Origin: a virus
Taxonomy: Duplodnaviria > Caudoviricetes
Reading direction: 5' to 3' (one strand)
Length of the DNA: 58,543 bases
IMG/VR virus record: IMGVR_UViG_3300032241_002115
Span: 1 to 58,543 of that record
The position numbers and the translations under genes are program-made. Below are positions 1 through 38,813 of the stretch, one piece after another (position 1 is the first letter of the stretch; each line of letters opens with the position of its first letter). Below the pieces are notes generated by a model. The model did no database searches and was not told the origin of the DNA. It was given only the letters and a program-made list of their open reading frames with translations.

Positions 1-140
1 ACAACAACTGCCTCACTGGTAGTAGTTGGATGATCTGTGCTTGATGCTACCGGGCTGTTGCCAGCCAGGCTCATCCAAGCCCACATCACAATCAGTACGA
101 ATGATCCCCGATTAAAAACACGCCCCCAGTTGATAGTCAT
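1..140 (-). CDS. partial hypothetical protein with N-terminal hydrophobic (signal-like) segment
   Basis: ATG at 140; frame stays open to the window edge (MTINWGRVFNRGSFVLIVMWAWMSLAG...); not in the ORF track. Confidence 0.4.
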   Translation of the reverse strand, partial: MTINWGRVFNRGSFVLIVMWAWMSLAGNSPVASSTDHPTTTSEAVV

Positions 141-207
141 AGGCTATCTCACTCTCTGTCCTTTCGGTAGATTGTTGGTGAACAATCCGTGAACCTTTAG
201 TATACCA

Positions 208-618
208 TCAGCACTCCTCTCGTTCCAGAGTTTCTTCTTGACCCTGCTCGAAGAAGGCCTTGTCGTCACCCCTCAACAGCATCTCAGCCTGCTGATCGGT
301 CAAGCCCATGGTGTAGCCCTCTTCATCACCCATGCCGGTGATGATCACGTCACCACGGATAGCGTACTGATAAATGCTGGGGCTGAGCCCTTTGAGCAAC
401 CAGGGATAGTGCTTGAGGTACAGATCCGAAGCAAACTCGTTGGGATCCAGGCCAATGATATGACCCTCATCGTTACACCACATGTCAACCCCGTAGTTGG
501 GCAGACTAACACAGTCAAAGATGCCATCAACAGCAGTCTTGATCATGCCGTAGCTGGTCTCCTTGGTGAACTTAACCAGTTCACGGGAGTTGTTGGCGCG
601 GATGATAACAGCTTTCAT
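208..618 (-). CDS. DUF3846-like phage protein
   Basis: Motifs DMWCNDEG and IRGDVIITG resemble DUF3846; GAGGA RBS before ATG 618. Confidence 0.65.
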   Translation of the reverse strand: MKAVIIRANNSRELVKFTKETSYGMIKTAVDGIFDCVSLPNYGVDMWCNDEGHIIGLDPNEFASDLYLKHYPWLLKGLSPSIYQYAIRGDVIITGMGDEEGYTMGLTDQQAEMLLRGDDKAFFEQGQEETLEREEC

Positions 619-619
619 G

Positions 620-781
620 TTATTCCTCATCTTTCATCAGATAGGTAAAGAAACCCATCCCTATTGTTACCATGGACAAGCATGCAGCATTAGCATACTT
701 GCGGTGAGCCAGGTCCAAACACACTGCAACCAGGCTCAATACCAACCAGAACTGCAAGAACCGATAGAAGAAGTTCTGCAT
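620..781 (-). CDS. small membrane protein (53 aa)
   Basis: AGGAG RBS; MQNFFYRFLQFWLVLSLVAVCLDL...MGFFTYLMKDEE; two hydrophobic stretches; tiles with the next gene. Confidence 0.6.
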   Translation of the reverse strand: MQNFFYRFLQFWLVLSLVAVCLDLAHRKYANAACLSMVTIGMGFFTYLMKDEE

Positions 782-928
782 GTGTCTCCTTGTAGGGTTG
801 ATAACGCCAGCCCAGGCTAATCTAATAACCAGGACAGTAAAAATTTTTCGGCGTCAGTTCAATCAGATCCGCGGAATCTGTGCGCCAAGCAGACAATTCT
901 CCACCAACAACACCTGTGCATTTCAGGG

Positions 929-1117
929 TCAGCTTTCTGATTCATAGATGCGAACAGCGTGCATGCAGTTGGTCAGTTGGAACAGATTGGCACTGTCAGC
1001 ACAGTTGAGGCTGGCATTGCGCAGGATCCACTCGTGATCACGGCGACGAGCTTCAGGGATATCCATGGTCTGCATGAGCCTGTCAGCAAACTGCCAGATG
1101 GTTTCCAGTTCTGTCAT
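929..1117 (-). CDS. hypothetical protein, paralog of 1135..1332
   Basis: IWQFADRLMQTMDIPEARRRDHEWIL matches the neighbouring ORF. Confidence 0.7.
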   Translation of the reverse strand: MTELETIWQFADRLMQTMDIPEARRRDHEWILRNASLNCADSANLFQLTNCMHAVRIYESES

Positions 1118-1134
1118 GATTCTCTACCTGTGCA

Positions 1135-1332
1135 TCAGGGTTGCAAGTCCAGGATGAGTTCCATGCAGGTCTGCAGGACCAACATATTTGGAACGAATGG
1201 GGCAAGGGGGAAAGCATACTCCAGGATCCAATCAGGATCCCTGCGCCGTTCCGGTGGGACATCCAACTGGTTCATCGCAAGATCAGCCAGCTGCCAGAGT
1301 TCATTTGCCCGGTAAAGGTTAGTGGTGATCAT
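1135..1332 (-). CDS. hypothetical protein, paralog of 929..1117
   Basis: LWQLADLAMNQLDVPPERRRDPDWIL. Confidence 0.7.
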   Translation of the reverse strand: MITTNLYRANELWQLADLAMNQLDVPPERRRDPDWILEYAFPLAPFVPNMLVLQTCMELILDLQP

Positions 1333-1334
1333 GT

Positions 1335-1802
1335 TCAGTCCTGCAGGGTGAAGGCGTACACGGTGCCGCGCACGTTGTCCCAGAGGTCATCCCAACCGGT
1401 GTTGTCAGTGAACACCACACTGTCCACCCGATTGCTGTGAGACCTGCAGGTCCAGATCTGAGGCTCGTCAATCACAGTGTACCCGCCATCGGGGAACACC
1501 TGTTCAACTGGCACTGCCTGCATGCTGTCGGCATCGATTGGCCAGCTGAAGAAACGTTCGGTGTTGTTGAACTCTCGCACGTTCCAGATGCTGGTGTTCA
1601 GGCCAGCGACCCACTCGTCACAGTCAGTGAACTCTGTGAGCAGTGGCACCTTGGCAGTGATGGCACGTTGAGCGGCCTCGAGTGTGGTGAACACACCCAG
1701 CTCGTGCTCCAGTTCCTGCTCGGGAGCTGGCAGTGACAGGCCTGATTGTATGGGCTGGTAGTCCCCGTAAATCCTGGCCAGATAGATCAATTGATCAGTC
1801 AT
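1335..1802 (-). CDS. hypothetical protein
   Basis: AGGAG RBS before ATG 1802; tiles with neighbours. Confidence 0.65.
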   Translation of the reverse strand: MTDQLIYLARIYGDYQPIQSGLSLPAPEQELEHELGVFTTLEAAQRAITAKVPLLTEFTDCDEWVAGLNTSIWNVREFNNTERFFSWPIDADSMQAVPVEQVFPDGGYTVIDEPQIWTCRSHSNRVDSVVFTDNTGWDDLWDNVRGTVYAFTLQD

Positions 1803-1868
1803 TGGTTGTCTCCTAGTGTTGGTGTGATGCTTGAGGTCAGGCAGGTGTACTGCCAAACCCCTGCCGCA

Positions 1869-2279
1869 TCAGTTGCCCAGCAGTTCTTCCAGGGTGTCTG
1901 GAACCCTGCTGGTGTGGGTGTGGTGAGCGTTTACCTGAGCAACGATCTCATCGAAGTTAGTATTGATCCACAGGATACCTGCGTAGTCCAGCTCATGTGT
2001 GATGCCATGAACCATGTCGTGCATGGTGAACATCACTTCTACAGCCAGGTCAGTCCCCGGGCATTCATCGGTGTGCCCGCCGGACTGCTTGCAGGGTGAG
2101 TCAGGCTCATCCTTGCACAGCTCCCGGGCTTTCTCCCGCAGATTCAACTTGTAGGTGAAAAAGATCTGCTGTTCGTTGAAACCAGCCTGGAGTGACAGCT
2201 TGTTCTGATAGGGATGATCTCTGCTCAGGTGCCACAACAGTTCATCAATCGTTGTTGGGCTGGGCATCTGCTGGGTCAT
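1869..2279 (-). CDS. hypothetical protein (Cys/His cluster)
   Basis: GAGGTG RBS; start overlaps the upstream stop. Confidence 0.65.
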   Translation of the reverse strand: MTQQMPSPTTIDELLWHLSRDHPYQNKLSLQAGFNEQQIFFTYKLNLREKARELCKDEPDSPCKQSGGHTDECPGTDLAVEVMFTMHDMVHGITHELDYAGILWINTNFDEIVAQVNAHHTHTSRVPDTLEELLGN

Positions 2280-2980
2280 CACAGCACCTCTCTTTCTTTC
2301 CGTCTGAGTTCCATCAGCTCTTCCCATCTTTTATAGCTGTACTCTTGAACCTGATACTCGATCTCACATAGCTGTGTGATTATAGCCCCGAGTTGTTCCG
2401 GTATAACATCATGGTTGGTATTGTTGAAACCAAACTTATCGATAGCAACACGTGCAATGTATGTTTGAATCATTTCGATGTTGTCACCGATAGCATCAAG
2501 AGCTGCTGCCAGTGGATCACCTGGAGTACACTCATTGTAGTAGTGATTACCGGATGGGCGCCACTTGCCGCGTGGTTCACCGAGCTTGGTTCCATAGCTG
2601 CTCTTGTCATTCCAGCCACTGTTCAGGGTGTACTCACCGCAGGCACAGCTGGTCATGATATCCTGCTTAGCACGTACAAGCTTGCGGGAGAATGAGATGA
2701 GTTCATCCCAGGCTGGTACAACAGGCAGCAGCTCAAGGTCAACCAGCTCAGTACCCTTAAGAGCAGTGAACAAACCATCTTGCACACAGCGACCACGTTC
2801 ATCAGCCTCACAGTGCTCAGTACCATGTGAGTGCCAGTGCTCTTTGAGGGCACTAACATGCCGATCAATGTCATCCACAGGATGATCTAGCACAGCTGAG
2901 AACTGCTGGAGCACCTGTTGCCAGATGTAGTTGTACTTGGCATTCAGATGCTGTACGTAGGGACGCTGATCGATTCTCAT
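2279..2980 (-). CDS. hypothetical protein (Cys/His motifs)
   Basis: GGAGGTG RBS; translationally coupled to neighbours. Confidence 0.65.
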   Translation of the reverse strand: MRIDQRPYVQHLNAKYNYIWQQVLQQFSAVLDHPVDDIDRHVSALKEHWHSHGTEHCEADERGRCVQDGLFTALKGTELVDLELLPVVPAWDELISFSRKLVRAKQDIMTSCACGEYTLNSGWNDKSSYGTKLGEPRGKWRPSGNHYYNECTPGDPLAAALDAIGDNIEMIQTYIARVAIDKFGFNNTNHDVIPEQLGAIITQLCEIEYQVQEYSYKRWEELMELRRKEREVL

Positions 2981-3465
2981 CACAGCACCTCCATTGGCAC
3001 TCGATGTGTCTCGAACAGGTGAGCAAGGCTGCGGGTTATGCGCTGGTGATTGCACACACGATCAATGCTGGTACCATCACGCAACAGATAGGGCTGGGTA
3101 ACCCACTTGCCCTGATCAACACTCTGATCGATCAATGACCACTGCTCGGTCAACAGATCGTACAGTGGTTCAATGGTCTGCCAGTTGTCGGGAGTCCAGG
3201 CACTGGGCAGACAGGGATCAAGATCAACCCACTGCTTGCGAGTCCAGTCGTTAGAACCACGAGCACTGGTGACCTGCTCCAGCTGGAAGAAACGTGGGCG
3301 GGAACCCCACAAGATCCCCCAGTGGATATGAATACGACCCGCACCGTAGAGCACGGGCTGCTCGGCTTGGAAACGCTGCCAACCATCAGCAGTGTAACCC
3401 TGCCAGCAATCAACCATGAGATCCCACACAGGGATAGTCATGGGTACTACCGGTTGCTTACTCAT
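2980..3465 (-). CDS. hypothetical Trp-rich protein
   Basis: GGAGGTG RBS before ATG 3465. Confidence 0.65.
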   Translation of the reverse strand: MSKQPVVPMTIPVWDLMVDCWQGYTADGWQRFQAEQPVLYGAGRIHIHWGILWGSRPRFFQLEQVTSARGSNDWTRKQWVDLDPCLPSAWTPDNWQTIEPLYDLLTEQWSLIDQSVDQGKWVTQPYLLRDGTSIDRVCNHQRITRSLAHLFETHRVPMEVL

Positions 3466-3618
3466 CTGACACCTCCAGGTATCAACTGGACCAAGTGAAC
3501 GGTTCACACAGGCCCACACTCAGGCAGCATATGACTGCAGGAGTGCACTGCATCCCCCAACAAGATCATCAGGGGACATATATGAGGCTAACTTAAACCT
3601 GCTAGCCCTGACCTTGGA

Positions 3619-3639
3619 CTTGTTTATGTAATAAACAAG
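3619..3639. promoter_or_regulatory. perfect 9-bp inverted repeat
   Basis: CTTGTTTAT-GTA-ATAAACAAG in intergenic DNA. Confidence 0.4.
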
Positions 3640-3678
3640 GACCCGATTAGCTTAGGTCATGTCAATCACCTCCTCTGA

Positions 3679-3694
3679 TGTTTCACGTGAAACA
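3679..3694. promoter_or_regulatory. parS: parS centromere-like site 1
   Basis: Exact TGTTTCACGTGAAACA, the broadly conserved bacterial chromosomal parS palindrome. Confidence 0.85.
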
Positions 3695-3783
3695 TTTGTG
3701 CGTACACATGCACACAACCAGCTGGTACAGGGTTCTACATGCCACTCAACAGGGTGGTCACACAGATCACACCAGTTGGCAGA

Positions 3784-3799
3784 TGTTTCACGTGAAACA
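3784..3799. promoter_or_regulatory. parS: parS centromere-like site 2
   Basis: Exact TGTTTCACGTGAAACA. Confidence 0.85.
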
Positions 3800-3800
3800 T

Positions 3801-4013
3801 TCATGACTGCACCGGGGTGATGAATGCACCGATCAAGTGACTGGTCAGTTCAACCACGTCCATGTGATGCTCGCGGATACTTCTCCACTGCTTGCAGATT
3901 TCGCAGGTACGGGTATCAGCTTCACACCGTTCCAGTTGTGGTTCGATGATATTCACCACCTGAGCTAGCAGTCTGTCACTGATCTCCAGCAGTGTTGCGA
4001 TGTCTTCTGTCAT
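3801..4013 (-). CDS. hypothetical protein
   Basis: AAGGA RBS; C-x6-C-x2-C motif. Confidence 0.6.
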   Translation of the reverse strand: MTEDIATLLEISDRLLAQVVNIIEPQLERCEADTRTCEICKQWRSIREHHMDVVELTSHLIGAFITPVQS

Positions 4014-4025
4014 GGGTTTTTCCTT

Positions 4026-4283
4026 TCACTCGGGTTGGATGGATTCGTACACCGGTTCCCAGCGCATGAGCACAGTTCCTGTGCACAGCATGAGATTCTC
4101 ACTGAGCTTGAACTCCAGGTGCATGTAGCCCTGCTCGTTCAGCACAGTACGCATCTCCAGGTACTTGTACACGGTTGGCATGCCCTGTGTGCTGTGGGTA
4201 ACGGTACTGGCATCAGCATCCACCAGGTACCAGTCACTGTGATCCACGCTCAGGTAGTACCTGTTCCAGGCTTTCACTTGCAT
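4026..4283 (-). CDS. hypothetical protein
   Basis: GAGGA RBS lying directly downstream of parS site 3 on this strand. Confidence 0.6.
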   Translation of the reverse strand: MQVKAWNRYYLSVDHSDWYLVDADASTVTHSTQGMPTVYKYLEMRTVLNEQGYMHLEFKLSENLMLCTGTVLMRWEPVYESIQPE

Positions 4284-4297
4284 GATATTCCTCTCTA

Positions 4298-4313
4298 TGT
4301 TTCACGTGAAACA
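4298..4313. promoter_or_regulatory. parS: parS centromere-like site 3
   Basis: Exact TGTTTCACGTGAAACA. Confidence 0.85.
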
Positions 4314-4315
4314 TG

Positions 4316-4335
4316 TTGTCCACAAGTTATCCACA
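4316..4335 (+). promoter_or_regulatory. two tandem DnaA boxes
   Basis: TTGTCCACA (4316-4324, actinobacterial consensus) and TTATCCACA (4327-4335, canonical box), 11 bp apart, 2 bp from parS 3. Confidence 0.7.
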
Positions 4336-4426
4336 GGTATGAATAACTTATTGATGGGTGGCATACTGTTGACCCAGGTATGCCAGCTGGACCCTGTTAT
4401 TCTAGATACAGGGAAACTAAGCTAAC

Positions 4427-5335
4427 TTAGTTAGCTGATGGTGCCGCTGCAGCGATGGCAGCCTGCTGGTCCAGCAGCACACGCATGGCCTGCCAGAACA
4501 CCAGCTGACCCTTGTAGCTGCCACGGATGCTGTTCGCAGCCAGGCTGGGCTCGGTCTGAACCACCTGACGGAACTGCGCGTAGGCATCGCTAGCGACAAC
4601 ACGCTTGATCATGGTGTTGATCAGGTCGGTATTGCCGAGTGCGCTGACCACCAGCTGACCACCACGGTACAGGGTGTACCCGGTGCTGCCGTCGCTCATC
4701 ACCTGTGGGTACAGGTTGATGTCGCCGGACTGACCACCGATGCGGTCCTGCTCACGCCAGGTCGGCTCCGCGAACGGAGTGGTCGGGTCAAGCGTGCCCA
4801 GGTGGACCTGGTAGCTGAGCTTGCCGTCGAGGTCAGGACGCAAGTCGCTGACGATCTTGACCAGCTGACGCTGCTTGAGGTAGGGCTTGCGGTACTCGAA
4901 CGTCGAGTCGACCGTGTTGCCTGACTTGAGCAGCTGCATGAGCCGGATGACCTTGGCAGCGTAGGTGACCTGCTCGCGGGTATACATCTCGTACACCTGA
5001 CCAGACTCGATACCCTGAGTCTGAGCAGTGACCACGCTGTCCTGGATCACCTTGACGTAGTTGATCCCGACGCTGGCGAGCAGCTGGGCAGTGTCCAGCA
5101 GCACGCTGTTGTCTTGGACAGCACGTGCGTTGCTACCGAAGTAGCTGGTGAGCCAGGCCAGGGCCGCTGCTGCTTCTGCAGCGACGGCTTCTGCCGAGGT
5201 CTCGTCGGTGTCCGCTGCCGAGTTGGTCTCGGCGTTGGTTGCCTCGAGGTTGGTGTCGAGGTTCTCGGTGGCTGCCGAGTCAGTGTTGTCAACCGTGACA
5301 ACTTCCTGGGTGCCCGAAGGCTGACCGTTCGTCAA
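4427..5335 (-). CDS. hypothetical protein with acidic T/A/E-rich N-terminus
   Basis: 302 aa; AGGAG RBS; strong G/C third-position bias. Confidence 0.8.
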   Translation of the reverse strand: MTNGQPSGTQEVVTVDNTDSAATENLDTNLEATNAETNSAADTDETSAEAVAAEAAAALAWLTSYFGSNARAVQDNSVLLDTAQLLASVGINYVKVIQDSVVTAQTQGIESGQVYEMYTREQVTYAAKVIRLMQLLKSGNTVDSTFEYRKPYLKQRQLVKIVSDLRPDLDGKLSYQVHLGTLDPTTPFAEPTWREQDRIGGQSGDINLYPQVMSDGSTGYTLYRGGQLVVSALGNTDLINTMIKRVVASDAYAQFRQVVQTEPSLAANSIRGSYKGQLVFWQAMRVLLDQQAAIAAAAPSAN

Positions 5336-5580
5336 TGTATGACTCCTGATCGTGCATCAGAATGCTGATGCGCCAATGCCACACTTGTGGCGGTACTGCA
5401 CTGCATGCTTCCCAGCATTCAGCATCTCTCCCAACCTGTGCACAGGCAGGAAGACTGGTGTGCTATACGCACATGACTGACCACGAACCTGAGCTCGTGA
5501 TCAGATAGTGCGTACTGCAGGGGTGGAGCACCCCGGTGCTGCATCTGCAGCTACTCCACTACTTACGTGACGGTGGGGCA

Positions 5581-5820
5581 TCAGATGAGCCCAGCAGCCT
5601 GAAGAGCTGCAGCCATGCTGTTGTTGCTGACCTGCACCTCCAAGGAACGCTGCTTGAACTCTGCGAGGTCTTGCAGGGTTGCTTCCAGCTTCTGCTCACG
5701 AGCAGCGTTGCTCTGGCGACGGCTCTTGACTTCGACCGGCTGATCGATCTTGCTCAAGAGCTGACGGCCCCAGGCATCACTGGTCTCGCTGACAGCGTGA
5801 ATGATGGGTGGGTTTGACAT
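5581..5820 (-). CDS. small coiled-coil hypothetical protein
   Basis: AAGGAGGTGA RBS before ATG 5820. Confidence 0.7.
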   Translation of the reverse strand: MSNPPIIHAVSETSDAWGRQLLSKIDQPVEVKSRRQSNAAREQKLEATLQDLAEFKQRSLEVQVSNNSMAAALQAAGLI

Positions 5821-5871
5821 ATGTTTTTCACCTCCTTTACAGGTGAGTTGGGACGGGACACTGGGCATGAG

Positions 5872-6018
5872 CTACTTGTTCTTGACTGGCTCAGCCAAGA
5901 AGTAGTGCTCAGCGCACACACGCTCGTGCATGGTGCCGGCGAACGATGGACGACAGAACTCGCCATCATTCTGACAAGCACGCTCGAGACGCTTGTCGTA
6001 GTAGGTGCACTTGTGCAT
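5872..6018 (-). CDS. small Cys/His (Zn-binding-like) protein, 48 aa
   Basis: AAGGAGGTGG RBS; MHKCTYYDKRLERACQNDGEFC...VCAEHYF. Confidence 0.55.
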   Translation of the reverse strand: MHKCTYYDKRLERACQNDGEFCRPSFAGTMHERVCAEHYFLAEPVKNK

Positions 6019-6060
6019 GACTACCACCTCCTTTCTACTAGTAGGGACAGGACGAATGAG

Positions 6061-6297
6061 TTAGCCGCGGAAGCCCCGGATCAACCGAGGGTGCTTGCGG
6101 TTGCGACGCAGCTGACTCTTGAACCGGCGCAGCTCTCGACGTGCCTCTCGGTACTTGTCGCGTGCCAGATCTGTGGCCTCGCTCTGGTTCTGCACCCGGA
6201 ACCCAACGCAGCTCAGGCAGAACTGCAGATCGGTCAACCTGCGCTGAGTGTAGAACTCAGCCGTGCAGTTGACGCACGTGCTTGGCTTGATCGCCAT
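6061..6297 (-). CDS. small Zn-ribbon protein with basic C-terminus
   Basis: CxxC...CxxC, Arg-rich tail; AAGGAG RBS. Confidence 0.65.
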   Translation of the reverse strand: MAIKPSTCVNCTAEFYTQRRLTDLQFCLSCVGFRVQNQSEATDLARDKYREARRELRRFKSQLRRNRKHPRLIRGFRG

Positions 6298-6334
6298 GAC
6301 TATCATCTCCTTGTGGGATTGACTACCATCCTGA

Positions 6335-6395
6335 TGGATGGTGTAGGAGCCACAGGCCTGGGGGAGGAGTTAGCCTGTGACCCCTACACCACCCA
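6335..6395 (-). promoter_or_regulatory. 23-bp RNA hairpin with C-rich loop
   Basis: The three A.C oppositions on the + strand are G.U pairs on the - strand; loop UAACUCCUCCCCCAG. Confidence 0.6.
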
Positions 6396-6422
6396 CCCTG
6401 CTGGGTGAGTGGGCACTACCCG

Positions 6423-6596
6423 TTATTCGGGCAGTACAGGTTGGGGCAGCTCAGCAAGCAACTGCTTGCCGAACTCGTGTGCCTCTGGACCGCTGAAGTC
6501 CTCGTGGACTGCAACGCCCAGCAGGTCGCGAAGATGTTCCAGCTCCTCATTGCTTTGGAGCAGGATCATCGTCCACTTTCCACCAGAAATTTTCAT
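6423..6596 (-). CDS. hypothetical protein (57 aa)
   Basis: AAGGAGGTGA RBS; MKISGGKWTMILLQSNEELEHLRDLL...; below the ORF-track cutoff. Confidence 0.6.
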   Translation of the reverse strand: MKISGGKWTMILLQSNEELEHLRDLLGVAVHEDFSGPEAHEFGKQLLAELPQPVLPE

Positions 6597-6945
6597 GTTT
6601 CACCTCCTTTCAAGGGTGAGTTGGAGTGCTCAATGTTTTTCCTGACCAACCACATCGTCAGGCACTGAGTATTGCAAGCGGCACGTGCTGCACTTGGCAC
6701 ACACAGCGCACCGCCAGCCCAGCGTCTCAGGCTGTGCCAGAGAACGCCAGCGTGGATGGTTCCAACACACACAGTTGTGCATGCCAGCAGTACAGACTTC
6801 AGCAGCCTGCCGTGCTGCTCACCCGGTGGGTAAGTCCACCGAGTTACGGGAACTCATGCAGACCCTCCAGCAAGTTCAAAACCTTAGGAGGGCCAGGCTT
6901 CACAGCCTCAAGTAAGGCTTAAAAACGCGACAGGGGCCGGGGGGT

Positions 6946-7110
6946 TTTCTGAACTACTGGGTAGTTAATGGGGGGGGTAATGTTAAACCCGTCGCACATT
7001 AAACGGGATAACGACAACTGCACTTAACTGTATATGGGACCCAATTCAGGGGAAAAGATCACTTGAAAAAAAACGGGCGGGGCCCCTGGGCCACTTTCTG
7101 AACCACTGGG
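6946..7110 (+). repeat. 16-bp imperfect direct repeat in the divergent junction
   Basis: TTTCTGAAC[T/C]ACTGGG at 6946-6961 and 7095-7110, with G-runs and an A-run nearby. Confidence 0.55.
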
Positions 7111-7112
7111 GT

Positions 7113-7139
7113 TTTAAAGGCTCTAGTAGAGCGCACTAG
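7113..7139 (+). promoter_or_regulatory. putative phage late promoter
   Basis: TTTAAAG-N15-ACTAG upstream of the first rightward gene. Confidence 0.45.
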
Positions 7140-7169
7140 AAGTTGTAAGTACAAGAGATCTGGAGAATC

Positions 7170-7625
7170 ATGCAATACAATAATTTTTTTACACGGGTTG
7201 CAAGCGGTCCACAAAAATTATATGACTATCATCAAGACCAAGTGGACATACATGGGCGAATGTATGACGATAACAAACAGTTTTTGAGCCTTGATACTGG
7301 GAATCCAGTGCGGGCACTGGCAATTGCAGCAAGGCGTTTGCATAACGAAGCCTCTAATGCTCATCAGGACGCAATGATTGCTCATGAACGGAATGCTCCA
7401 AGTGCCAGTCTAATGAGTGCCCGTGCCATCGGTATGAGCAGTTCTGCCCTATTGATTCAGGATGAACTGCATACGCAACGAAACATGAATAGTGGACCAT
7501 ATGATAACACATACGGAACTATTGGCCCTGGTAAGGACAGAACCCGGATATTAGACACATATGATGATAACACATACGGAACTATTGGCCCTGGTCCTGC
7601 AGCCGGTGGACCTATTATACTATGA
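7170..7625 (+). CDS. His/Ala-patterned helical protein, paralog of 10572..10907
   Basis: GGAGA RBS; FFTRVAS leader; AHxxAxxAH...SARAI block shared with 10572. Confidence 0.7.
   Translation: MQYNNFFTRVASGPQKLYDYHQDQVDIHGRMYDDNKQFLSLDTGNPVRALAIAARRLHNEASNAHQDAMIAHERNAPSASLMSARAIGMSSSALLIQDELHTQRNMNSGPYDNTYGTIGPGKDRTRILDTYDDNTYGTIGPGPAAGGPIIL
7501..7595 (+). repeat. 32-bp exact in-frame direct repeat
   Basis: ATGATAACACATACGGAACTATTGGCCCTGGT at 7501 and 7564 (DNTYGTIGPG x2). Confidence 0.9.
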
Positions 7626-8203
7626 GCTGGATACCTGACATGTGGCGGAAGACCGCCAGCCCCGAAATAAACTTTAATATCGGCGGTGAGCCGGAAGAGC
7701 CTGATGGCATGAGCTATGAGGGCTTTGACACGGCTTGGGGTGAAGGCGGCAGACATCATGACTCCGTACACCCAGACTGGTATCCCTATCTGCCGGAACG
7801 CCCTGAATACGATCCAGTGAAAGCAGAAACGGAACTTCAAATACGACGTATCCAAGAAATGGGCATGCATTACAAACGCACACTCAATGACATAAAAGCT
7901 CTACCAGCGGCTACCACAGAAGAACTGCATGCCGCCTATCCCCATGCTCGCACCGACAAGCTGGGCAGCAGCTGGAGCTCACGCTATGCCAGTGAAACAC
8001 CCGATCCCAGCATCACAGGCCTGCCGGGCACAGACGGTGCTCCAGCAACGGCTGGTACAGACATCCCGGATGGAGTAAGCCCGGTTCGACCCAGTACCAG
8101 CATGCCCAAACCGGTTGCTCCTACCGGCAAGACCCGTGTTCCTCACAACACCGGCATCACCAACAACAAACCACGGGCCACCCGGGCAACCGCTAGCAAC
8201 TAA
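7622..8203 (+). CDS. hypothetical low-complexity protein with two leader-like motifs
   Basis: ATGA overlap; WRKTAS and internal WSSRYAS. Confidence 0.7.
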   Translation: MSWIPDMWRKTASPEINFNIGGEPEEPDGMSYEGFDTAWGEGGRHHDSVHPDWYPYLPERPEYDPVKAETELQIRRIQEMGMHYKRTLNDIKALPAATTEELHAAYPHARTDKLGSSWSSRYASETPDPSITGLPGTDGAPATAGTDIPDGVSPVRPSTSMPKPVAPTGKTRVPHNTGITNNKPRATRATASN

Positions 8204-11101: not shown

Positions 11102-11502
11102 ACTGGAACTACAGATACGCATCAGATGCTCGTGCCAAGCGAATCATGGATCAACTTCGCAAGGAATATCCCGGTGCTGAGATAATTGATGACGCTGGCA
11201 GCTACTTTGCTCTGACTGAACCAACAAAAGATCACCCAGAGTACGATGGTGCTGTTCAGGTGGTTGTTGGGCCAACTCCGCCACATCATCATGAGCACAC
11301 CAGCCATGAATACCGTGCCCGACAGACTCCGTTCAACCTGCACATGGATGATCAGGTAATCAGAGTTGAACCCGGCCAGACTCATCATGTACCTCCAGGA
11401 ACGGTTCACTATCTGAGCGTTGATCCTGATACTGAGTGCTGGCTGGATGTGATTGACCGCCCTGGTCTGGATGATGACAACCCGGATGCACAAAATGTAT
11501 AA
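11098..11502 (+). CDS. cupin-domain protein with MNWNYRYAS leader
   Basis: PHHHEH..HEY and EPGQTHHVPPGTVH are cupin motifs 1 and 2. Confidence 0.8.
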   Translation: MNWNYRYASDARAKRIMDQLRKEYPGAEIIDDAGSYFALTEPTKDHPEYDGAVQVVVGPTPPHHHEHTSHEYRARQTPFNLHMDDQVIRVEPGQTHHVPPGTVHYLSVDPDTECWLDVIDRPGLDDDNPDAQNV

Positions 11503-11923
11503 GAAATGGAAAATACGTTATGCCAGCAATGGCAGCGCAAAAGAACAGGTCATTGCTCAGCTAGAGGATGACTACCCAGAAGACAAGATGCAGTGGATTC
11601 ATGATGCTGATTGGTCCGGTCCACAGACTGTTGATATAAAAGATATTGACAGCAGTAAACGTAAAACCTGGGCAGCCTACCATGAGCCTAAAAAAGTAAA
11701 CAAATGGATGAAACGCATAGAAGATGGGAACAAAAAACCAGTAACCCTGGTTAAAACTCCTAAAAATGATAAGTATATTATTATTGATGGGCATCATCGC
11801 TTCCTGGCCTATGAAAAACTCAAGCAGGACCCAGTGTGCTGGATAGGCAGTGTAGATAAAGAAAGTGGCCCATGGGATACTTTCCACAATGAACAGAATG
11901 CTCGAGAGGCGGCAGACAAATGA
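11495..11923 (+). CDS. ParB/Sulfiredoxin N-terminal-domain protein with WKIRYAS leader
   Basis: KPVTLV...YIIIDGHHRFLA motif; no HTH visible. Confidence 0.75.
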   Translation: MYKKWKIRYASNGSAKEQVIAQLEDDYPEDKMQWIHDADWSGPQTVDIKDIDSSKRKTWAAYHEPKKVNKWMKRIEDGNKKPVTLVKTPKNDKYIIIDGHHRFLAYEKLKQDPVCWIGSVDKESGPWDTFHNEQNAREAADK

Positions 11924-15262: not shown

Positions 15263-15973
15263 ATGACATACGACAGTTTTGAAACACAGGTAAAGACAGC
15301 TGCAGCGAACACTTCGTGGTTCAATGGCACATCCGAGAGCATCTTTAATCGCCTGGATCTGCTAGAGGACCTGTTAAACAGAGCACGCACTGCTGCCAGC
15401 AACCCAAACGTTAACGATGGTGATCTACAGCGTTTTGCCAGCACAATTACCGAGCTGGCTACCGAAAAAGAACAGCTGGAAAAGATCGCCAGTGAATATG
15501 TTGACTTTGATGTTGAAGACTATCTGAATAGCCTGCCAGGTGGCACTGTTGCTAAAGAATATCGTTTGAGTAGTGCCGGCACCTATGACATCGGTGAAGA
15601 CGATGGTAGCCTGTTATTCAAGACAGCATCTGCTGTACAGTCAGAGTACGATGATGCTAACTGGATCAACTTTGTAACAGCTGGCGCTGAACTGTGGACA
15701 GAAGACCAGTCACATCACCTGCTGGACAGCCAGCTGAACACCAGAGAAGCAGCTGTTTTCTATGTAGAAAAGAAAACACTGCCCATCCTGGATGTTACCA
15801 AGCGTGCTGCTATCATTGACAACTTTGTTGACAACGTAGAGATCTGCAGACGTACAAAAGTAGCCAGCAACAGCTTCCGATCAGTCAAGGTTGCTAATGC
15901 TAACCGTCTTAAGGCTAATTTTGTACAAGATGCCCTTGAAGACTCGTTTGGGGACAGTGTAAACTGGTTCTGA
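15263..15973 (+). CDS. helical protein, putative prohead core/internal protein
   Basis: Six K/R-x-A motifs (KTAA, RTAA, KIAS, KTAS, KVAS, KVAN). Confidence 0.75.
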   Translation: MTYDSFETQVKTAAANTSWFNGTSESIFNRLDLLEDLLNRARTAASNPNVNDGDLQRFASTITELATEKEQLEKIASEYVDFDVEDYLNSLPGGTVAKEYRLSSAGTYDIGEDDGSLLFKTASAVQSEYDDANWINFVTAGAELWTEDQSHHLLDSQLNTREAAVFYVEKKTLPILDVTKRAAIIDNFVDNVEICRRTKVASNSFRSVKVANANRLKANFVQDALEDSFGDSVNWF

Positions 15974-15974
15974 T

Positions 15975-16502
15975 ATGTCTGAACTTGAAAAACTAGATAT
16001 CTCAAGCCTCAAGCAGTTTAGGTTTGTTGGATCTGTAGAGCAAGAGCCGGTAGAAGCAGATAATGAAGCTGATCTGACCAACGCTCTGCAAAAACTACTG
16101 GCGGATGTGGCTACATTCTATCACATCGTGCATGAGGCTCACTGGAACGTTACTGGTAGTGATTTTTATCAGTACCACAAGTTCTTTGACGAGATAGTGA
16201 GTGATGTGTATGATAGCATTGATCCTATTGCGGAAAACATCCGTAAGCTTGGAGCAAAGCCAGCATATAGAATGTCAGAGCTGTTCAAACAAGCAACACT
16301 ACCAGATAATGATATAAAAACTGATAATGCAGTGTCACTATCTAGTACATTGGGTGATTTAAACAAAAAAATCATCACAACGCTTAAATCTACGTTTGAT
16401 AAAGCAAATAGCGACAACGAACAGGGTGTAGCTAACTTTATTGCTGAGCGTATTGATTCGCATCAAAAATGGCAGTGGTTCTTAGAGGCATCAACGGGAT
16501 GA
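15975..16502 (+). CDS. dps: Dps / DNA starvation protection ferritin-like protein
   Basis: HEAHWNVTGSDFYQYHKFFDE...DPIAENIRKLG...HQKWQWFL ferroxidase signature. Confidence 0.92.
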   Translation: MSELEKLDISSLKQFRFVGSVEQEPVEADNEADLTNALQKLLADVATFYHIVHEAHWNVTGSDFYQYHKFFDEIVSDVYDSIDPIAENIRKLGAKPAYRMSELFKQATLPDNDIKTDNAVSLSSTLGDLNKKIITTLKSTFDKANSDNEQGVANFIAERIDSHQKWQWFLEASTG

Positions 16503-20235: not shown

Positions 20236-20676
20236 ATGATAAACAAAAATGTTATTGCAGTTAATAAAAGAAGACGAAAGCTAAAGGCTCTTGTTGTTGA
20301 ATACATGGGAGAAAGATGTCATCGATGTGGTTGGGATGAGCACCAATCCGGTTTAATCCCACACCATGTCGATGAAAGCAAAAAATCTTTCAGTATAGGT
20401 ACTGGTGGTCAAACCAGAAGCTGGGAAAAAAATAAACAAGAATGTAATAAATGTATTCTTCTATGCGCAAACTGTCACCATGTAATACATGCAACTAATG
20501 AAGAATATTATTTTAATGAAGATAATATACCTAAATATAATGATTCTATAGGAGAAAAAGCACATAAACAACTGCCTAACTGCCTAGATTGTGGTAAAGA
20601 AATATCAGTTAGAGCCTTGCGTTGTAAATCATGCAATGGTAAAATGAATGCATTAAAAAGATCCGCCCTAGCATAA
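20236..20676 (+). CDS. HNH endonuclease with C-terminal Zn ribbon (homing-type)
   Basis: CHRC...PHHVD...CILLCANCHHVIH; CLDC...CKSC; AT-rich relative to flanks. Confidence 0.88.
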   Translation: MINKNVIAVNKRRRKLKALVVEYMGERCHRCGWDEHQSGLIPHHVDESKKSFSIGTGGQTRSWEKNKQECNKCILLCANCHHVIHATNEEYYFNEDNIPKYNDSIGEKAHKQLPNCLDCGKEISVRALRCKSCNGKMNALKRSALA

Positions 20677-20733
20677 TGGCAATGCACCAAACTGTTAATT
20701 TGCAAGATCTTGGTTCGAATCCAAGGGGCGGAG
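20662..20733 (+). tRNA. trnN: tRNA-Asn (GTT)
   Basis: Full cloverleaf: TCCGCCC/GGGCGGA, GCAT/ATGC, CAAA-CTGTTAA-TTTG, CTTGG-TTCGAAT-CCAAG, discriminator G. Confidence 0.9.
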
Positions 20734-20752
20734 CATAATCCTCATATGGTAG

Positions 20753-20897: not shown

Positions 20898-20976
20898 CCG
20901 GAGAGGTGCTGCGTTGGTTGCGGCAGTGGAGCTTATATCTCCATGGACACAGGTTCAATTCCTGTTCTCCGGACCA
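20898..20976 (+). tRNA. trnI: tRNA-Ile with TAT anticodon, atypical arms, CCA encoded
   Basis: CCGGAGA/TCTCCGG acceptor; GTGGAG-CTTATAT-CTCCAT; ACAGG-TTCAATT-CCTGT; ends ACCA. Confidence 0.8.
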
Positions 20977-30896: not shown

Positions 30897-33257
30897 ATGC
30901 CATCCAAGGACTGGAGCGCCTCAGCGGAGCTTAACAACATGCGTAAAGCCGGTATTACTGGCTCTAGCAACCCTGTGCGCAACCGCCTTGAGACGCAAGA
31001 GCTACTACGAAATGTTCGTACCGGAGGATCTTTCGCAAGTGATGTTGCCAGAATGCCTACGGAAGGCCGTGAGCGACTCAATACAATGGGTGGCAGGGTT
31101 AACATGGAGGGCGGTGTTGCCCGTACTCTTGGCCGTACTGCTGCTGCCACTGGGAGTGATGCTCAGTGGGCCTGGCCCAAGCTTCATGACCCATTCGAGT
31201 ACTGGCGTGAGCGTACCTGGTGGTTCAACATGGAGGACCCCGACGAACAGACACGTAAAATCCGTGACTGGACTCGCCTGCTCTATACGACACACTATCT
31301 CGTACCAGGTCTTATTGATATCTACACACGGTTCCCACTCCTGGACATTGAGCTCGTACACCACGACAAGCGCATCAGTGACTTCTACAACGAGATGTTC
31401 TTTGATGGTCTAAACTATCAGGAGTTCCTCTTTGATCTAGGACGTGAGCACTGGACCGTGGGTGAAGTGTTTGCCATGGGCAGCTGGCACGATGGTATTG
31501 GTGCCTGGGAAGATGATGAAATCATCAATCCAAATGACGTTATCGTTGCAAAGAACCGAGCACTTCGTACCTATCAGTATCACGTAAAGGTTCCACAGGA
31601 GATCAAGAAGCTTATTGAATCTCGTGAACCCTCTCAGGAATACCAGATGCTCATGCAGATGTATCCTGATGTTGTCCAGTGGGCACGTCAGGACAAAGAG
31701 ATCCCTGTCAGTGACGTGATCATGAAGCAGATCAAGTTCAAGACTAACCCATGGAGCGAACATGGTACTCCTATGCTTTTACGTGCTTTTCGCATGCTTA
31801 TGCTTGAGGAGTCTCTCAACGCTGCTCAAGATGCAATTGCTGATCGTCTATATAGCCCTCTCATACTTGCTACTCTGGGTCTTCCTGACGTAGACCAGGA
31901 CGGGCCCTGGATCCCTGATGCTACTGAGCTTCAGGCTCTGAGAGATGACTTGAGTATGGCCATCAACTCGGACTTCCGACTGATGACCTACCACCACGGT
32001 CTACAGATCCAGAATGCCTTCGGGCGTGAGAGCATGCCACGACTGGATGCTGACTTCATGCGTGTTGAGAGCAAGATCATGCAGGTGTTCGGTATTGGTT
32101 CTGACCTGCTACAGGGTGGCCAGGGTGGCACCTATGCCAGTGGTGCTCTTAACCGTGAACTTATCACTCAGATGCTTAGCACCTATCAGCACAAGATTGA
32201 GAACTTTATCCGTAGTCGCATGGAGCCTGTTGCAGAACGTCAGGGTCACTATGAGATGCGTACAGTCAATGGTCGCACCTTGCCAATCATGGAAACAGTA
32301 CTCATGGTGGACGAAGAGACCGGTGCAGAATATGTAGAAGAGCGTCCCAAGCTGGCCATACCAGAAGTGCGCTTCCGCAGTATGAACCTGCGAGATGAGA
32401 GCGTAGAGCGAGGATTCCTGCAGAACCTGATGGCCTCAGGGTTCCCCATCAGCCTGGGCACTCTGGCAGTGAATATTCCTATTGACTTTGACGATGAGCT
32501 TGAGACTCGTCGTGAAGAAAAGGTCAAGACGGTTGTAGCGGAACAGCAGTTCAAGCGTGAGCTGTTCCAGCAACTGCTAGTTCAACAGCTGCCCATTCCA
32601 CCTGAATATATTCAGGAATACCAGGCCTATCTATCCATGCTCGAGAACCCTGCTCTTGCAATGCAGCTGGCACCTGGAGCTATTGCTGGCCTGGTAACAC
32701 CACCAGCTGCTCCAAACATGACAGGTGTTCCGGTCAAGAACAGTGATGCTGCACTTGGATCGCAGATCTTCCCCATGGTCAATCAGCAGGCACAACAGCA
32801 GAATCAAACGCAGCGTGGAACAGAACGCAAGCGTCCAGCTGAGTCGTATGACCAGAAGGAATCACAACCCAAGCCCAGCAAGAAGGGCCCAAAGAACGGG
32901 CCACAGCGCAACAAGAAAACAGCTGGCACCGATGAAGAGCTAACAACCAGCTTTGGTGATGGCAGCATCATCAATGAGCGTGTTGAATACGGTGGTCGTA
33001 TGAAGTTCGCTACACCGATAGAGAGCCGCAAGCGCAGAAAGATGAAGCTGGCCAGCGGTATCAAACTTAACGTTGATGACAGCTACGAAAAGTTTAATGA
33101 AGATGAATTTAAATTACACCTTGCAGCACTTATAGAAGCAAGTGAAGAACCCATGATTCCTGAGCCCACAGACCTGGACGAACACAGCAGTGGTGAAGGC
33201 GGAATGGATCAGCCAGCACGTCGACAGATTGATCCAACTAAAGGTGAAAAAATATGA
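30897..33257 (+). CDS. portal protein
   Basis: 786 aa upstream of protease/scaffold/capsid; helical core with IDIYTRFPL, WxxHGTPMLLRAF, AIADRLYSPL motifs recalled from Bxz1-like portals. Confidence 0.85.
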   Translation: MPSKDWSASAELNNMRKAGITGSSNPVRNRLETQELLRNVRTGGSFASDVARMPTEGRERLNTMGGRVNMEGGVARTLGRTAAATGSDAQWAWPKLHDPFEYWRERTWWFNMEDPDEQTRKIRDWTRLLYTTHYLVPGLIDIYTRFPLLDIELVHHDKRISDFYNEMFFDGLNYQEFLFDLGREHWTVGEVFAMGSWHDGIGAWEDDEIINPNDVIVAKNRALRTYQYHVKVPQEIKKLIESREPSQEYQMLMQMYPDVVQWARQDKEIPVSDVIMKQIKFKTNPWSEHGTPMLLRAFRMLMLEESLNAAQDAIADRLYSPLILATLGLPDVDQDGPWIPDATELQALRDDLSMAINSDFRLMTYHHGLQIQNAFGRESMPRLDADFMRVESKIMQVFGIGSDLLQGGQGGTYASGALNRELITQMLSTYQHKIENFIRSRMEPVAERQGHYEMRTVNGRTLPIMETVLMVDEETGAEYVEERPKLAIPEVRFRSMNLRDESVERGFLQNLMASGFPISLGTLAVNIPIDFDDELETRREEKVKTVVAEQQFKRELFQQLLVQQLPIPPEYIQEYQAYLSMLENPALAMQLAPGAIAGLVTPPAAPNMTGVPVKNSDAALGSQIFPMVNQQAQQQNQTQRGTERKRPAESYDQKESQPKPSKKGPKNGPQRNKKTAGTDEELTTSFGDGSIINERVEYGGRMKFATPIESRKRRKMKLASGIKLNVDDSYEKFNEDEFKLHLAALIEASEEPMIPEPTDLDEHSSGEGGMDQPARRQIDPTKGEKI

Positions 33258-33449: not shown

Positions 33450-33827
33450 ATGACTGGCAGCTTCTTTAATAGTAGCAACGTTTGGTTTGGATACCTGGCC
33501 AACTTTTTCTTTGCCGCTGCAGGCTTTGGTGCTATAGCAAGATTTATTTATAAACTTGTCAACAAGCATCAGGACAAAAAGATGGATGACATCAAAACAG
33601 ATGTTGATGCTATTAAAGAAGAGCTAAAGAATAACTTTGAAGAGATGCTTGCTGAATGGAGGCCAAATAGCGGCAGCAGCAGCAAGGACCAGATGAACCG
33701 AATGGAAGCTGGTATCTCTGATCTTAAAAAAGGTCAGGATGTTATTCACGAGCGGATTGACAAAATCAAAGAAGATTTTGCAGAGCACAAGGGTTATCAC
33801 AGAGGACTATTAGATGGAGAAGCTTGA
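33450..33827 (+). CDS. single-TM coiled-coil membrane protein (holin-like)
   Basis: N-terminal TM; RPNSGSSSKDQMNRME motif typical of small actinophage membrane proteins. Confidence 0.6.
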   Translation: MTGSFFNSSNVWFGYLANFFFAAAGFGAIARFIYKLVNKHQDKKMDDIKTDVDAIKEELKNNFEEMLAEWRPNSGSSSKDQMNRMEAGISDLKKGQDVIHERIDKIKEDFAEHKGYHRGLLDGEA

Positions 33828-34219
33828 TGAGAGCCATCAAGAAGGTAAGCCACTGGGACTTTCATCCTAAAGTTCGCAGTGGAGACCAAAGAACGTTTGG
33901 AGAAAAAAGTGCTGATGTTATGCGTAGGAGCATGGGCAGTTGGCCTTTTGTCTTCGGTTTTTGTTGCTTTATGGCAGCTTGGATGTGGTACAACGCATCA
34001 TCAAGAAGTGCTTTTGATCCTTTTCCTTATATCCTGCTTAACCTCTGCCTTTCGACTCTGGCGGGTCTGCAGGGAGCTATTTTGCTCATAGCTGCCAAGC
34101 GTGCTGATCGCATCGCTGCTGAACTGGCAGAGTACCACTTGGAAGTCAGTGAAGAGCACAGGATCATGCTGGATGAGCTCACAGAGATGCTAGAGAAAAC
34201 AATAGTTAACACAAAATAA
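33827..34219 (+). CDS. DUF1003-family membrane protein
   Basis: MGSWPF...FDPFPYILLNLCLSTLAGLQGAILLIAAKRAD. Confidence 0.85.
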   Translation: MRAIKKVSHWDFHPKVRSGDQRTFGEKSADVMRRSMGSWPFVFGFCCFMAAWMWYNASSRSAFDPFPYILLNLCLSTLAGLQGAILLIAAKRADRIAAELAEYHLEVSEEHRIMLDELTEMLEKTIVNTK

Positions 34220-37802: not shown

Positions 37803-38813
37803 ATGAGTATTTCCCCTAATGGCGCTGTAGCGGACCACCTGGCCCCAAGAACAGCCAAGAAGTCGGATGACTACGTATCCGGTATCGTAGAGGCTCAAGA
37901 GCGTCTCGCATCGGCAACTGGTCGTAAGACTGCAACGCGTGAGGAAAAGCAGCGTCGTCTTGCTGGTATACTTGCTGACAAGGACAACTACATGGTCCGT
38001 CTGGGCCAGGGTATGATTGGTCCTATCCAGCTGAAGCTTCGTTATCAGGGTATGACCCGTAACGTACTTCTCGAGGACCCACTGACCCCTGGTGTACCTG
38101 TCATGTACGACGTACTTGACGAGTACGGTCAGGCCTACATCCTGTCGGGTAACGAGGGTGAGGTTCGTGTAACCCCATTCGAAGGTAAGAAGGTTCCGGT
38201 CCGCCTGTTCCGTATTGCCACCTTCCCACAGATCAAGAAGGAAGACCTCTGGTACCTGCGTGTTAACATCGTTGAGTACGCTCAGGACATGAGCAAGCAG
38301 GCCATCATGATGCAGGAAGACGCCCGTCTTATCACTGTTCTTGAAGCCGCTATCAACAACTACGCTGTTGACCCCAACCACACGGTCAGCCCCAACCACG
38401 TAGTCAACGAGCTTTCGGGTTACATCACCCCTGACTCGATGTACGACCTGGTTGCCCTCATCGAGGTCCACCAGTTGGAGGCTAGCCGTCTGCTGTTCAA
38501 CCCCATCGACTACCGTGACCTCTACAAGTGGGACATCAACCAGACCGGTTGGGCCTTCAAGGACCGCGTCGTAGCCGGTGAGCGTATCGTTCAGTTCGGT
38601 GGTTTCCAGGTACAGCGCAGCATCGAGGTCCCCCAGGGCACCGTTTACATGACCCCAAGCCCCGAGTTCCTCGGTGTATTCCCTGTCATGTACAGCCTCG
38701 ACGTTGAAGAGAACCACACCCCTGAGAAGTTCCACAAGGGTTGGGTCATGGACGAGCTCGTCAGCGAGATTGTTCTTAACCCACGTGGCCTCGGCAAGAT
38801 CGTCAAGGCCTAG
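37803..38813 (+). CDS. major capsid protein (HK97 fold)
   Basis: Position; strongest codon bias; LRYQGMTRNVLLED...QEDARL...GWVMDELVSEIVLNPRG. Confidence 0.9.
   Translation: MSISPNGAVADHLAPRTAKKSDDYVSGIVEAQERLASATGRKTATREEKQRRLAGILADKDNYMVRLGQGMIGPIQLKLRYQGMTRNVLLEDPLTPGVPVMYDVLDEYGQAYILSGNEGEVRVTPFEGKKVPVRLFRIATFPQIKKEDLWYLRVNIVEYAQDMSKQAIMMQEDARLITVLEAAINNYAVDPNHTVSPNHVVNELSGYITPDSMYDLVALIEVHQLEASRLLFNPIDYRDLYKWDINQTGWAFKDRVVAGERIVQFGGFQVQRSIEVPQGTVYMTPSPEFLGVFPVMYSLDVEENHTPEKFHKGWVMDELVSEIVLNPRGLGKIVKA

Follow-up and report, generated by a model that had tools for sequence, protein, structure and literature searches.

A candidate borrowed centromere: three perfect chromosomal-type parS sites in the early operon of a large phage

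The virus record IMGVR_UViG_3300032241_002115, a linear IMG/VR sequence of 58,543 bp that was analysed over its whole length (hereafter the window) and is estimated by CheckV to be 38% complete, carries three perfect copies of the chromosomal partition site parS in its early region. As no partition genes were found alongside these three sites, the phage most likely makes use of the ParB of its host, and we regard it as reasonably probable that the three palindromes are orphan host-ParB loading sites, in other words a borrowed centromere array. After DNA entry, host ParB dimers would bind the parS sites, close into cytidine triphosphate (CTP) clamps and spread, and the spread ParB would give rise to a partition complex on the phage DNA, on which host ParA and SMC could then act. 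While binding of host ParB is what we infer from the sites themselves, the use to which it would most likely be put is proposed more guardedly, by analogy with phage phi29 and Spo0J: the likeliest benefit would be host-driven positioning and inheritance of the unintegrated phage genome during delayed lysis, as in a carrier, pseudolysogenic or dormant-cell state.

Results

The early operon contains three exact parS sites

Scanning the window for the 18-mer ATGTTTCACGTGAAACAT returned exact copies starting at 3678, 3783 and 4297 (Table 1), the three positions at which an earlier note on this DNA had described an 18-bp palindrome. The count is far above chance, since 0.05 copies are expected and 0 of 100 shuffled sequences got to three, and the window held no further copy when up to three mismatches were allowed. 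The array spans 640 bp inside the leftward early operon, and the 16-bp palindromic core of all three sites matches the parS consensus TGTTTCACGTGAAACA; an excerpt of PMC10197239, citing Livny et al. 2007, gives this 16-mer as the published consensus employed for finding parS. The description of all three sites as intergenic holds for site 3 but not for sites 1 and 2, which are the ends of a 50-codon open reading frame (ORF) at 3652-3804(-). Site 3 does abut a ribosome-binding site, as had been pointed out, with AGAGAGGAA lying between it and the ATG of an 85-amino-acid (85-aa) gene. A worry that the contig might be chimeric was laid to rest at the sites, where synteny with the related records G001 and G029 spans both sides. 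The sequence of the three palindromes thus supports their assignment as true chromosomal-type parS.

The sites are kept in relatives that share the early interval

A search of viral contigs with the 302-aa protein encoded next to the array found one relative, G001 (a 94-kb record, 43% identity), and a search with a 258-aa protein found none. The portal protein was the useful handle: it led to 77 related loci, and the records of 50 of them were searched for parS, while the other 27 loci, mostly in small records, comprised one in G001, which was searched, and 26 outside the parS search. In G001, four perfect 16-mers lie directly downstream of the 302-aa homologue, and its 94 kb hold no other parS within two mismatches. 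Among the 50 portal relatives, perfect arrays were present in G017 (three sites), G029 (two) and G035 (two), a single site with one mismatch was present in each of G014 and G015, and the remaining 45 had none. The array-bearing relatives hold their two to four sites within at most 450 bp, and the arrays belong to a hypervariable early region, at a distance of 5-9 kb from one and the same conserved gene block. Across the five array-bearing records (the window, also termed G000, with G001, G017, G029 and G035) the 16-mer is kept at 14 of 14 perfect sites and the flanks vary, an invariance that, together with the identity to the consensus, bears out the earlier recognition of the palindrome as chromosomal parS. 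Moreover, parS is the sole repeated palindrome of at least 12 bp in these five records, and the relatives without arrays have no counterpart repeated palindrome.

The interval between a gene for a DUF3846 protein and the conserved block is contiguous in seven records (the window, G001, G014, G015, G017, G029 and G035), and every one of the seven has at least one site, five as perfect arrays and two as the single one-mismatch site. Conservation in relatives, about which the earlier note had asked, is thereby found in all records in which the syntenic interval is intact; G006, G009, G022 and G031 were left out of this count, as contig ends cut the interval. In the near-complete G006 and G022 these ends fall in the hypervariable early interval, the DUF3846 gene being next to one of them and the conserved block next to the other, and because assemblies seem to break there, the absence of parS from such records is uninformative. 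The DUF3846 protein, encoded at 208-630(-) of the window, is a marker of the parS-bearing version of the early region. Its gene was also seen in 3 of 50 unrelated parS-bearing viral records, ending 2 bp before parS in L004 (1968-2229) and lying about 1.1 kb away in L036 (8973-10550); a link between DUF3846 and parS is unproven.

Bound by host ParB, the sites might serve hostile or regulatory ends instead of partition, which we hold to be possible though unlikely. Replicating phage genomes, with three sites each, would soak up ParB and thereby disturb origin segregation, SMC loading and division, or ParB clamps loaded in the early operon would lower early transcription. The evidence for binding is the same as for a borrowed centromere, and the sequence does not separate titration or damping from partition. 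Damping would suit the place of site 3, 13 nt from a start codon within the early operon, and ParB-dependent repression next to parS in Pseudomonas aeruginosa is described in an excerpt of PMC5521831. However, the sites of G017 and G035 lie in longer non-coding stretches away from ribosome-binding sites, and in phi29 the repressor role belongs, according to PMC2731898, to a second host factor, Spo0A, and not to Spo0J.

Searches for a phage-encoded reader favour a host protein

Domain searches found no ParB_N, HTH_ParB, ParA-type AAA_31 or Bac_DnaA in the window, in agreement with the earlier observation that it lacks parA, dnaA and a parB bearing a helix-turn-helix (HTH). HTH_ParB, AAA_31 and Bac_DnaA were likewise absent from all five array-bearing records, and HTH_ParB from five relatives that are 82-100% complete. 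A hunt for phage parAB among relatives, which had been recommended, thus yielded no HTH_ParB in ten records and no ParA in the five with arrays; altogether neither a phage ParB nor a phage ParA turned up in the window and nine related records, of which all the array-bearing ones are 29-59% complete. To our knowledge, ParB is the only protein with parS specificity.

What the window does encode is a protein with a ParB N-domain only, at 11453-11923(+), whose match to ParBc_2 (E 1.5e-4) is below the cut-off and which has no HTH domain. It has a homologue in G001 (139 aa, containing IIIDGHHRF) and another in G022, and blastp detected none in the loci around parS of G017, G035, G014 and G015; phages commonly encode single-domain ParB-fold proteins, as stated in an excerpt of PMC12704722. 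We also screened nine records, comprising 3136 ORF clusters, for genes that accompany the arrays, with three records as the parS-free set and G015, given its one-mismatch site, kept apart. No plausible gene was common to the five array-bearing records and missing from the three parS-free ones, and the sole cluster that fitted this pattern runs antisense to a conserved gene (15263-15973) and was taken as a shadow ORF. The 302-aa neighbour of the array belongs to a family of eight members without a Pfam domain; as a hidden DNA binder it was rejected, its AlphaFold model (pLDDT, the model's confidence score, 74.7) having no match in the PDB at E <=0.001, ParB and HTH proteins included.

A reader encoded by the phage itself, whether of the ParB family or another DNA-binding protein, and whether located in the unassembled 60% of the genome or among the small early proteins, would make the array part of the phage's own partition or operator system. 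The low completeness of the genome, the many early genes without known function, and the ParB_N-only protein with its G001 homologue are all compatible with such a reader. Nevertheless we consider it quite improbable, since one of the ten related records without HTH_ParB is 100% complete, no ParA was found, the ParB_N-only protein has neither an HTH nor a counterpart near the parS of G017, G035, G014 and G015, no plausible gene co-occurs with the arrays, the 302-aa neighbour lacks a structural match, and a non-ParB protein would be unlikely to reach the exact 16-bp consensus. As far as sequence searches go, the results favour a host protein as the reader of the sites.

Orphan parS sites occur in other phages

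The perfect 18-mer is present in at least 117 IMG/VR records; no relative of this phage was found among the 117 loci, which gave just two weak protein matches. ParB_N was missing from 46 of 50 checked records and, among the 12 of them with a completeness of at least 90%, from 10. Among cultured phages, a 30-mer centred on site 3 matches 455 of 50,697 records at E <=10, and for 205 of these the best match is at least 99% identical. Listeria, Clostridium, Microbacterium, Bacillus, Arthrobacter and Gordonia are the commonest organism names among the 455, and no enterobacterial phage is among the ten commonest. One of the 455 is Gordonia phage Woes (KU998240.1), a complete genome of 73.7 kb with two perfect parS sites at 71019-71034 and 71440-71455 (L385-L387), located between small leftward genes near the right genome end; neither ParB_N nor HTH_ParB was found in Woes, so that the orphan centromere is seen here in a complete genome. 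Among bacteria, at least 120 species genomes contain perfect parS pairs with a spacing of 60-90 bp, and no homology of window proteins to those chromosomal loci was detected.

Several further features were seen in this survey. Clostridium perfringens phages of 13-18 kb have 6-12 matched places each, a palindromic site being read as two places. Many small IMG/VR records of 8-18 kb (L005, L012, L028, L031, L043 and similar) contain one to three perfect 18-mers and no ParB_N, and some small parS-bearing records have inverted terminal repeats, the size and repeats recalling phi29-like phages. At the second site of Woes the palindrome reaches 28 bp through its GCTCG...CGAGC flanks.

Genes and predicted RNA structure around the array

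On the minus strand, the 302-aa gene is followed by a spacer, the 85-aa gene, the 70-aa gene and the 50-codon ORF (Table 1). The start of this last ORF overlaps the stop of the 70-aa gene (ATGA), site 2 begins the ORF and site 1 ends it. A gene is called at this ORF in the protein collection, and a search for homologues returned the query itself as the sole hit. The ORF is probably translated, because its roughly ten differences from the G001 copy include four at synonymous third positions, and it behaves as a mosaic cassette common to the window and G001. Tiny Cys-rich early proteins with the pattern CxxC ... W.H ... C form a family (window 3652-3804(-); L121 7469-8032; L203 1163-1500); in G001, a 188-aa protein ends in a paralogous copy of the 50-aa ORF, and other small CxxC proteins are encoded just upstream of the parS sites of G029.

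Table 1. Positions of the parS sites, DnaA-box-like sequences and genes in the window
Feature	Position	Strand	Remarks
parS site 1	3678..3695	no strand	perfect 16-bp core at 3679-3694 with A/T flanks; reads NVSRET near the C-terminus of the 50-aa ORF
parS site 2	3783..3800	no strand	perfect; right behind the stop of the 70-aa gene; codons 2-7 of the 50-aa ORF, reading NVSRET
parS site 3	4297..4314	no strand	perfect, intergenic; 13 nt upstream of the 85-aa gene ATG
DnaA-box-like 9-mer TTGTCCACA	4316..4324	+	identical in G001; absent beside parS in G017, G029 and G035
DnaA-box-like 9-mer TTATCCACA	4327..4335	+	on the transcript, in the 3' arm of a predicted 13-bp hairpin
50-aa Cys-rich ORF	3652..3804	-	motif WCxLCxHPxEWHVEPC...; bounded by parS sites 2 and 1
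70-aa ORF	3801..4013	-	function not assigned; between the 85-aa gene and site 2; absent there in G001
85-aa ORF	4026..4283	-	function not assigned; directly downstream of site 3; 98% identical in G001
Structured intergenic region	4284..4426	-	143-bp spacer between the 302-aa and 85-aa genes
302-aa protein	4427..5335	-	function not assigned; directly upstream of the array; 35-43% identity in G001 and G029
Portal	30897-33257	+	window gene
Major head protein	37803-38813	+	window gene

The 171-nt stretch 4270-4440, in which the spacer is contained, is predicted to fold into five consecutive stem-loops (-50 kcal/mol, z -3.11), the fourth of which holds a pair of DnaA-box-like sequences and the fifth of which is parS site 3. 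The predicted fold of a 191-nt stretch pairs site 1 with site 2, a result that was set aside as trivial for identical palindromes. A scan for promoters and terminators gave nothing above chance, with two promoter-like sites against 2.1 expected and no terminators. Four of the five window copies of a TAAGYTARY motif fall within 3587-4429 (3587-3654 and 4418-4429), at gene ends and in the leader, and the motif may be an early promoter or terminator element; as an enriched motif it was rejected, five copies being present window-wide against 3.9 expected.

What lies between the sites varies among records: the window and G001 have the Cys-rich ORF there, G029 has a different small ORF, and in G017 and G035 the DNA between sites is non-coding. 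Because the window's homology to G001 sets in at site 2 and breaks off just past site 1, the parS sites coincide with mosaic joints. In G017, a repeat of about 20 bp, cctaatgacgcatcgagtaag / cttactcgatacgccattag, flanks the first two parS in inverted orientation (16199-16471; L209 1320-1600), and this pair could therefore form a large cruciform or hairpin.

These structures raise the alternative that ParB is not involved, and that the palindromes act as stem-loops of the early transcript, in its stability, processing or translation control, or as recombination joints between cassettes. The five successive hairpins of the leader are in line with the former, and the differing cassettes of the window, G001 and G029, along with the homology that spans from site 2 to just past site 1, are in line with the latter. 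We nonetheless judge it very improbable, since neither a hairpin nor a joint needs a 16/16 match to parS in 14 of 14 copies, the relatives without parS have no substitute palindrome, the same 16-mer recurs in unrelated phages, and cassette shuffling at repeats may be a by-product of identical sites.

The DnaA boxes beside site 3 are probably not an origin

As described in the earlier note, TTGTCCACA and TTATCCACA follow the third parS in tandem, both on the plus strand and with their starts 11 bp apart, the first box being 1 bp from the site. Beyond the pair, the window has a single exact TTRTCCACA, on the minus strand at 50118. Since we calculate that chance would give about 0.9 exact boxes over the full length of the window, adjacent exact boxes are not a product of chance; sequences with one mismatch to TTRTCCACA are not enriched (33 against 34.6 expected, with 61 of 100 shuffles reaching 33), so only the tandem pair stands out.

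The same note had read the locus as a mimic of the host oriC at which phage replication might start. That an origin or oriC mimic recruiting DnaA is located here is, in our judgement, highly improbable, even though the tandem consensus boxes next to parS are not accidental. An oriC needs a cluster of several DnaA boxes, and there are two exact ones. Near the boxes we found no AT-rich unwinding element, the lowest 60-bp GC content being 38%, at the boxes themselves, and no iterons or iteron-like direct repeats. GC skew, which had been suggested as a check, has no inflection at 3.6-4.4 kb; its cumulative minimum lies at about 8-10 kb, near the gene-strand switch, and the only turn is near 7-9 kb. 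Moreover, the pair is limited to the window and a near-identical G001 segment, the other array-bearing relatives lack it beside their parS (Table 1), and the 4.8-kb Woes locus holding two parS has no DnaA box. A copy of a chromosomal oriC was rejected as well, as parS followed by two boxes within 8 bp occurs in 0 of 185,579 species genomes, and the boxes form one arm of a predicted hairpin.

We conclude that the boxes are not an origin and that the pair is probably a local add-on, either an input of host DnaA on the 85-aa gene or part of the structured leader. DnaA may well bind the pair as a local regulator, judging from the boxes, or these may simply be one arm of the leader hairpin. Of the earlier proposal that the phage recruits host proteins here, the part on ParB endures, in that the sites are true parS and a host protein probably reads them, and the joint headline of an oriC mimic and replication start does not.

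The phage and its probable host

From position 1 to about 6400 the genes of the window run leftward, are small and nearly all lack a known function, the DUF3846 protein being the exception; from 7170 on they run rightward and include those for portal, major head protein, collagen-like fibres and tail sheath. We take the phage to be a myovirus of about 150 kb. No cultured phage matched window positions 1-8000 in a distant blastn. The portal shares 38-40% identity with its counterparts in cultured phages, and 223 of the 227 matching records are phages of Mycobacterium, Mycolicibacterium, Gordonia and Rhodococcus; since these matches are mostly actinobacterial phages, the host is likely an actinobacterium.

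Elsewhere in the window, a ferritin/Dps-like protein is encoded at 15975-16502(+) (Pfam Ferritin, E 1.7e-18) and is kept in all compared relatives, and two tRNA genes, for Asn (GTT) and Ile (TAT), are located at 20662-20734 and 20898-20976 (+). Between the portal and head genes, at 33450-34219(+), a WXG100-like small protein (E 2.3e-5, below the cut-off) is followed by a DUF1003 protein (E 3.1e-20).

Discussion

The window array resembles several known systems, and differs from each. For phi29, the work of Meijer et al. in 2005 is reportedly the primary paper on parS and Spo0J. As an excerpt of PMC2731898 describes it, phi29 has five parS sites for host Spo0J, which takes part in segregation of the phage genome into the prespore, and Spo0A boxes that suppress the lytic cycle. 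The likeness is twofold: a phage of lytic class has several host-type parS and no partition genes, none at least having been found in the window, host ParB acting on the phi29 sites (PMC2731898), and the sites of a second host master regulator stand alongside, Spo0A boxes in phi29 and possibly DnaA boxes here. However, phi29, a 19-kb protein-primed podovirus, infects a spore former and benefits by entrapment in the spore, whereas here we have a fragment of a roughly 150-kb myovirus, probably of an actinobacterial host and known from sequence alone, with a tight 640-bp array in an early operon and two of the sites embedded in a tiny ORF.

With the chromosomal parS arrays near oriC, which serve ParABS and SMC loading, the window array shares the identical 16-bp sequence and closely spaced perfect copies, but it sits on a virus, without parAB nearby, a DnaA-box cluster or an unwinding element. 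Plasmid prophages such as P1, N15 and the cluster A mycobacteriophages likewise have centromere sites on a phage genome, for episomal inheritance. These phages supply ParA and ParB themselves and use site sequences distinct to them, whereas here no parA or parB was found beside the centromere, the site is the chromosomal consensus and the neighbouring genes are without family assignment. We know of no link to parS from work on phages with CtrA sites. Such phages of Alphaproteobacteria, for which an excerpt of PMC9437464 speaks of "lytic deferment", appear from that text to tie their programme to a host cell-cycle protein through cis sites, as would be the case here, but with another regulator and other sites. 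SGI1, according to an excerpt of PMC10954446, hijacks the parABS of an IncC plasmid via its own parS copies and so is comparable as a mobile element that has the cis site only and exploits the ParAB of another replicon; it differs, as far as the excerpt goes, in that the partition system is that of a helper plasmid and not of the host chromosome, and in that SGI1 is not a phage. Our search of the literature on host ParB acting on phage parS, with supplements outside its reach, found nothing beyond the phi29 family.

Several observations weigh against a borrowed centromere array. Because the array-bearing records are 29-59% complete (the window 38%), the missing part of the genome could encode a phage ParB. 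Genes for an integrase, a repressor or plasmid replication, which would point to a persistent state, were not seen. The sites next to ribosome-binding sites in a structured leader fit an RNA role too. The host assignment has the 38-40% portal similarity as its sole basis. The distant cultured relatives Skog, Stormageddon and Cali have no parS, and G008, G010, G024, G026, G034, G036 and the complete G048, in which the early side is covered (by arithmetic, at least 9 kb on that side), have neither the DUF3846 gene nor parS; since seven covered relatives do without it, the array is tied to a single version of the early region, and the phage group as a whole can dispense with it.

Phage-borne host parS as such was known already from phi29, and the headline of an oriC mimic is to be dropped. 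Of interest here are a new lineage and type of host, sites that are embedded in tiny ORFs where mosaic segments join, and the unusual pair of DnaA boxes. It is conceivable, if distinctly unlikely, that parS sites and DnaA boxes together form a cell-cycle coupling module of a large lytic phage in non-sporulating, slow-growing actinobacteria. ParB clamps would then spread over the early operon, ParA and SMC would take the genome to both daughter cells, and DnaA on the two boxes would gate the first downstream early gene by the readiness of the host to replicate. Such a module, if real, would be a spore-independent counterpart of the Spo0J/Spo0A strategy of phi29, and the hundreds of parS phages, mostly without a ParB gene, would represent a widespread and largely overlooked mode of persistence.

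For the borrowed centromere array itself, our survey suggests that the phi29 trick is not a mere curiosity and hints that orphan parS sites are common in phages, and Woes offers a tractable, ready experimental model for the idea. Should host ParB indeed be loaded there, a large phage of uncultured bacteria that looks lytic would be positioned and inherited via the chromosome-segregation machinery of its host, and this would provide a concrete mechanism for the carrier and pseudolysogenic states, which are much discussed but poorly explained.

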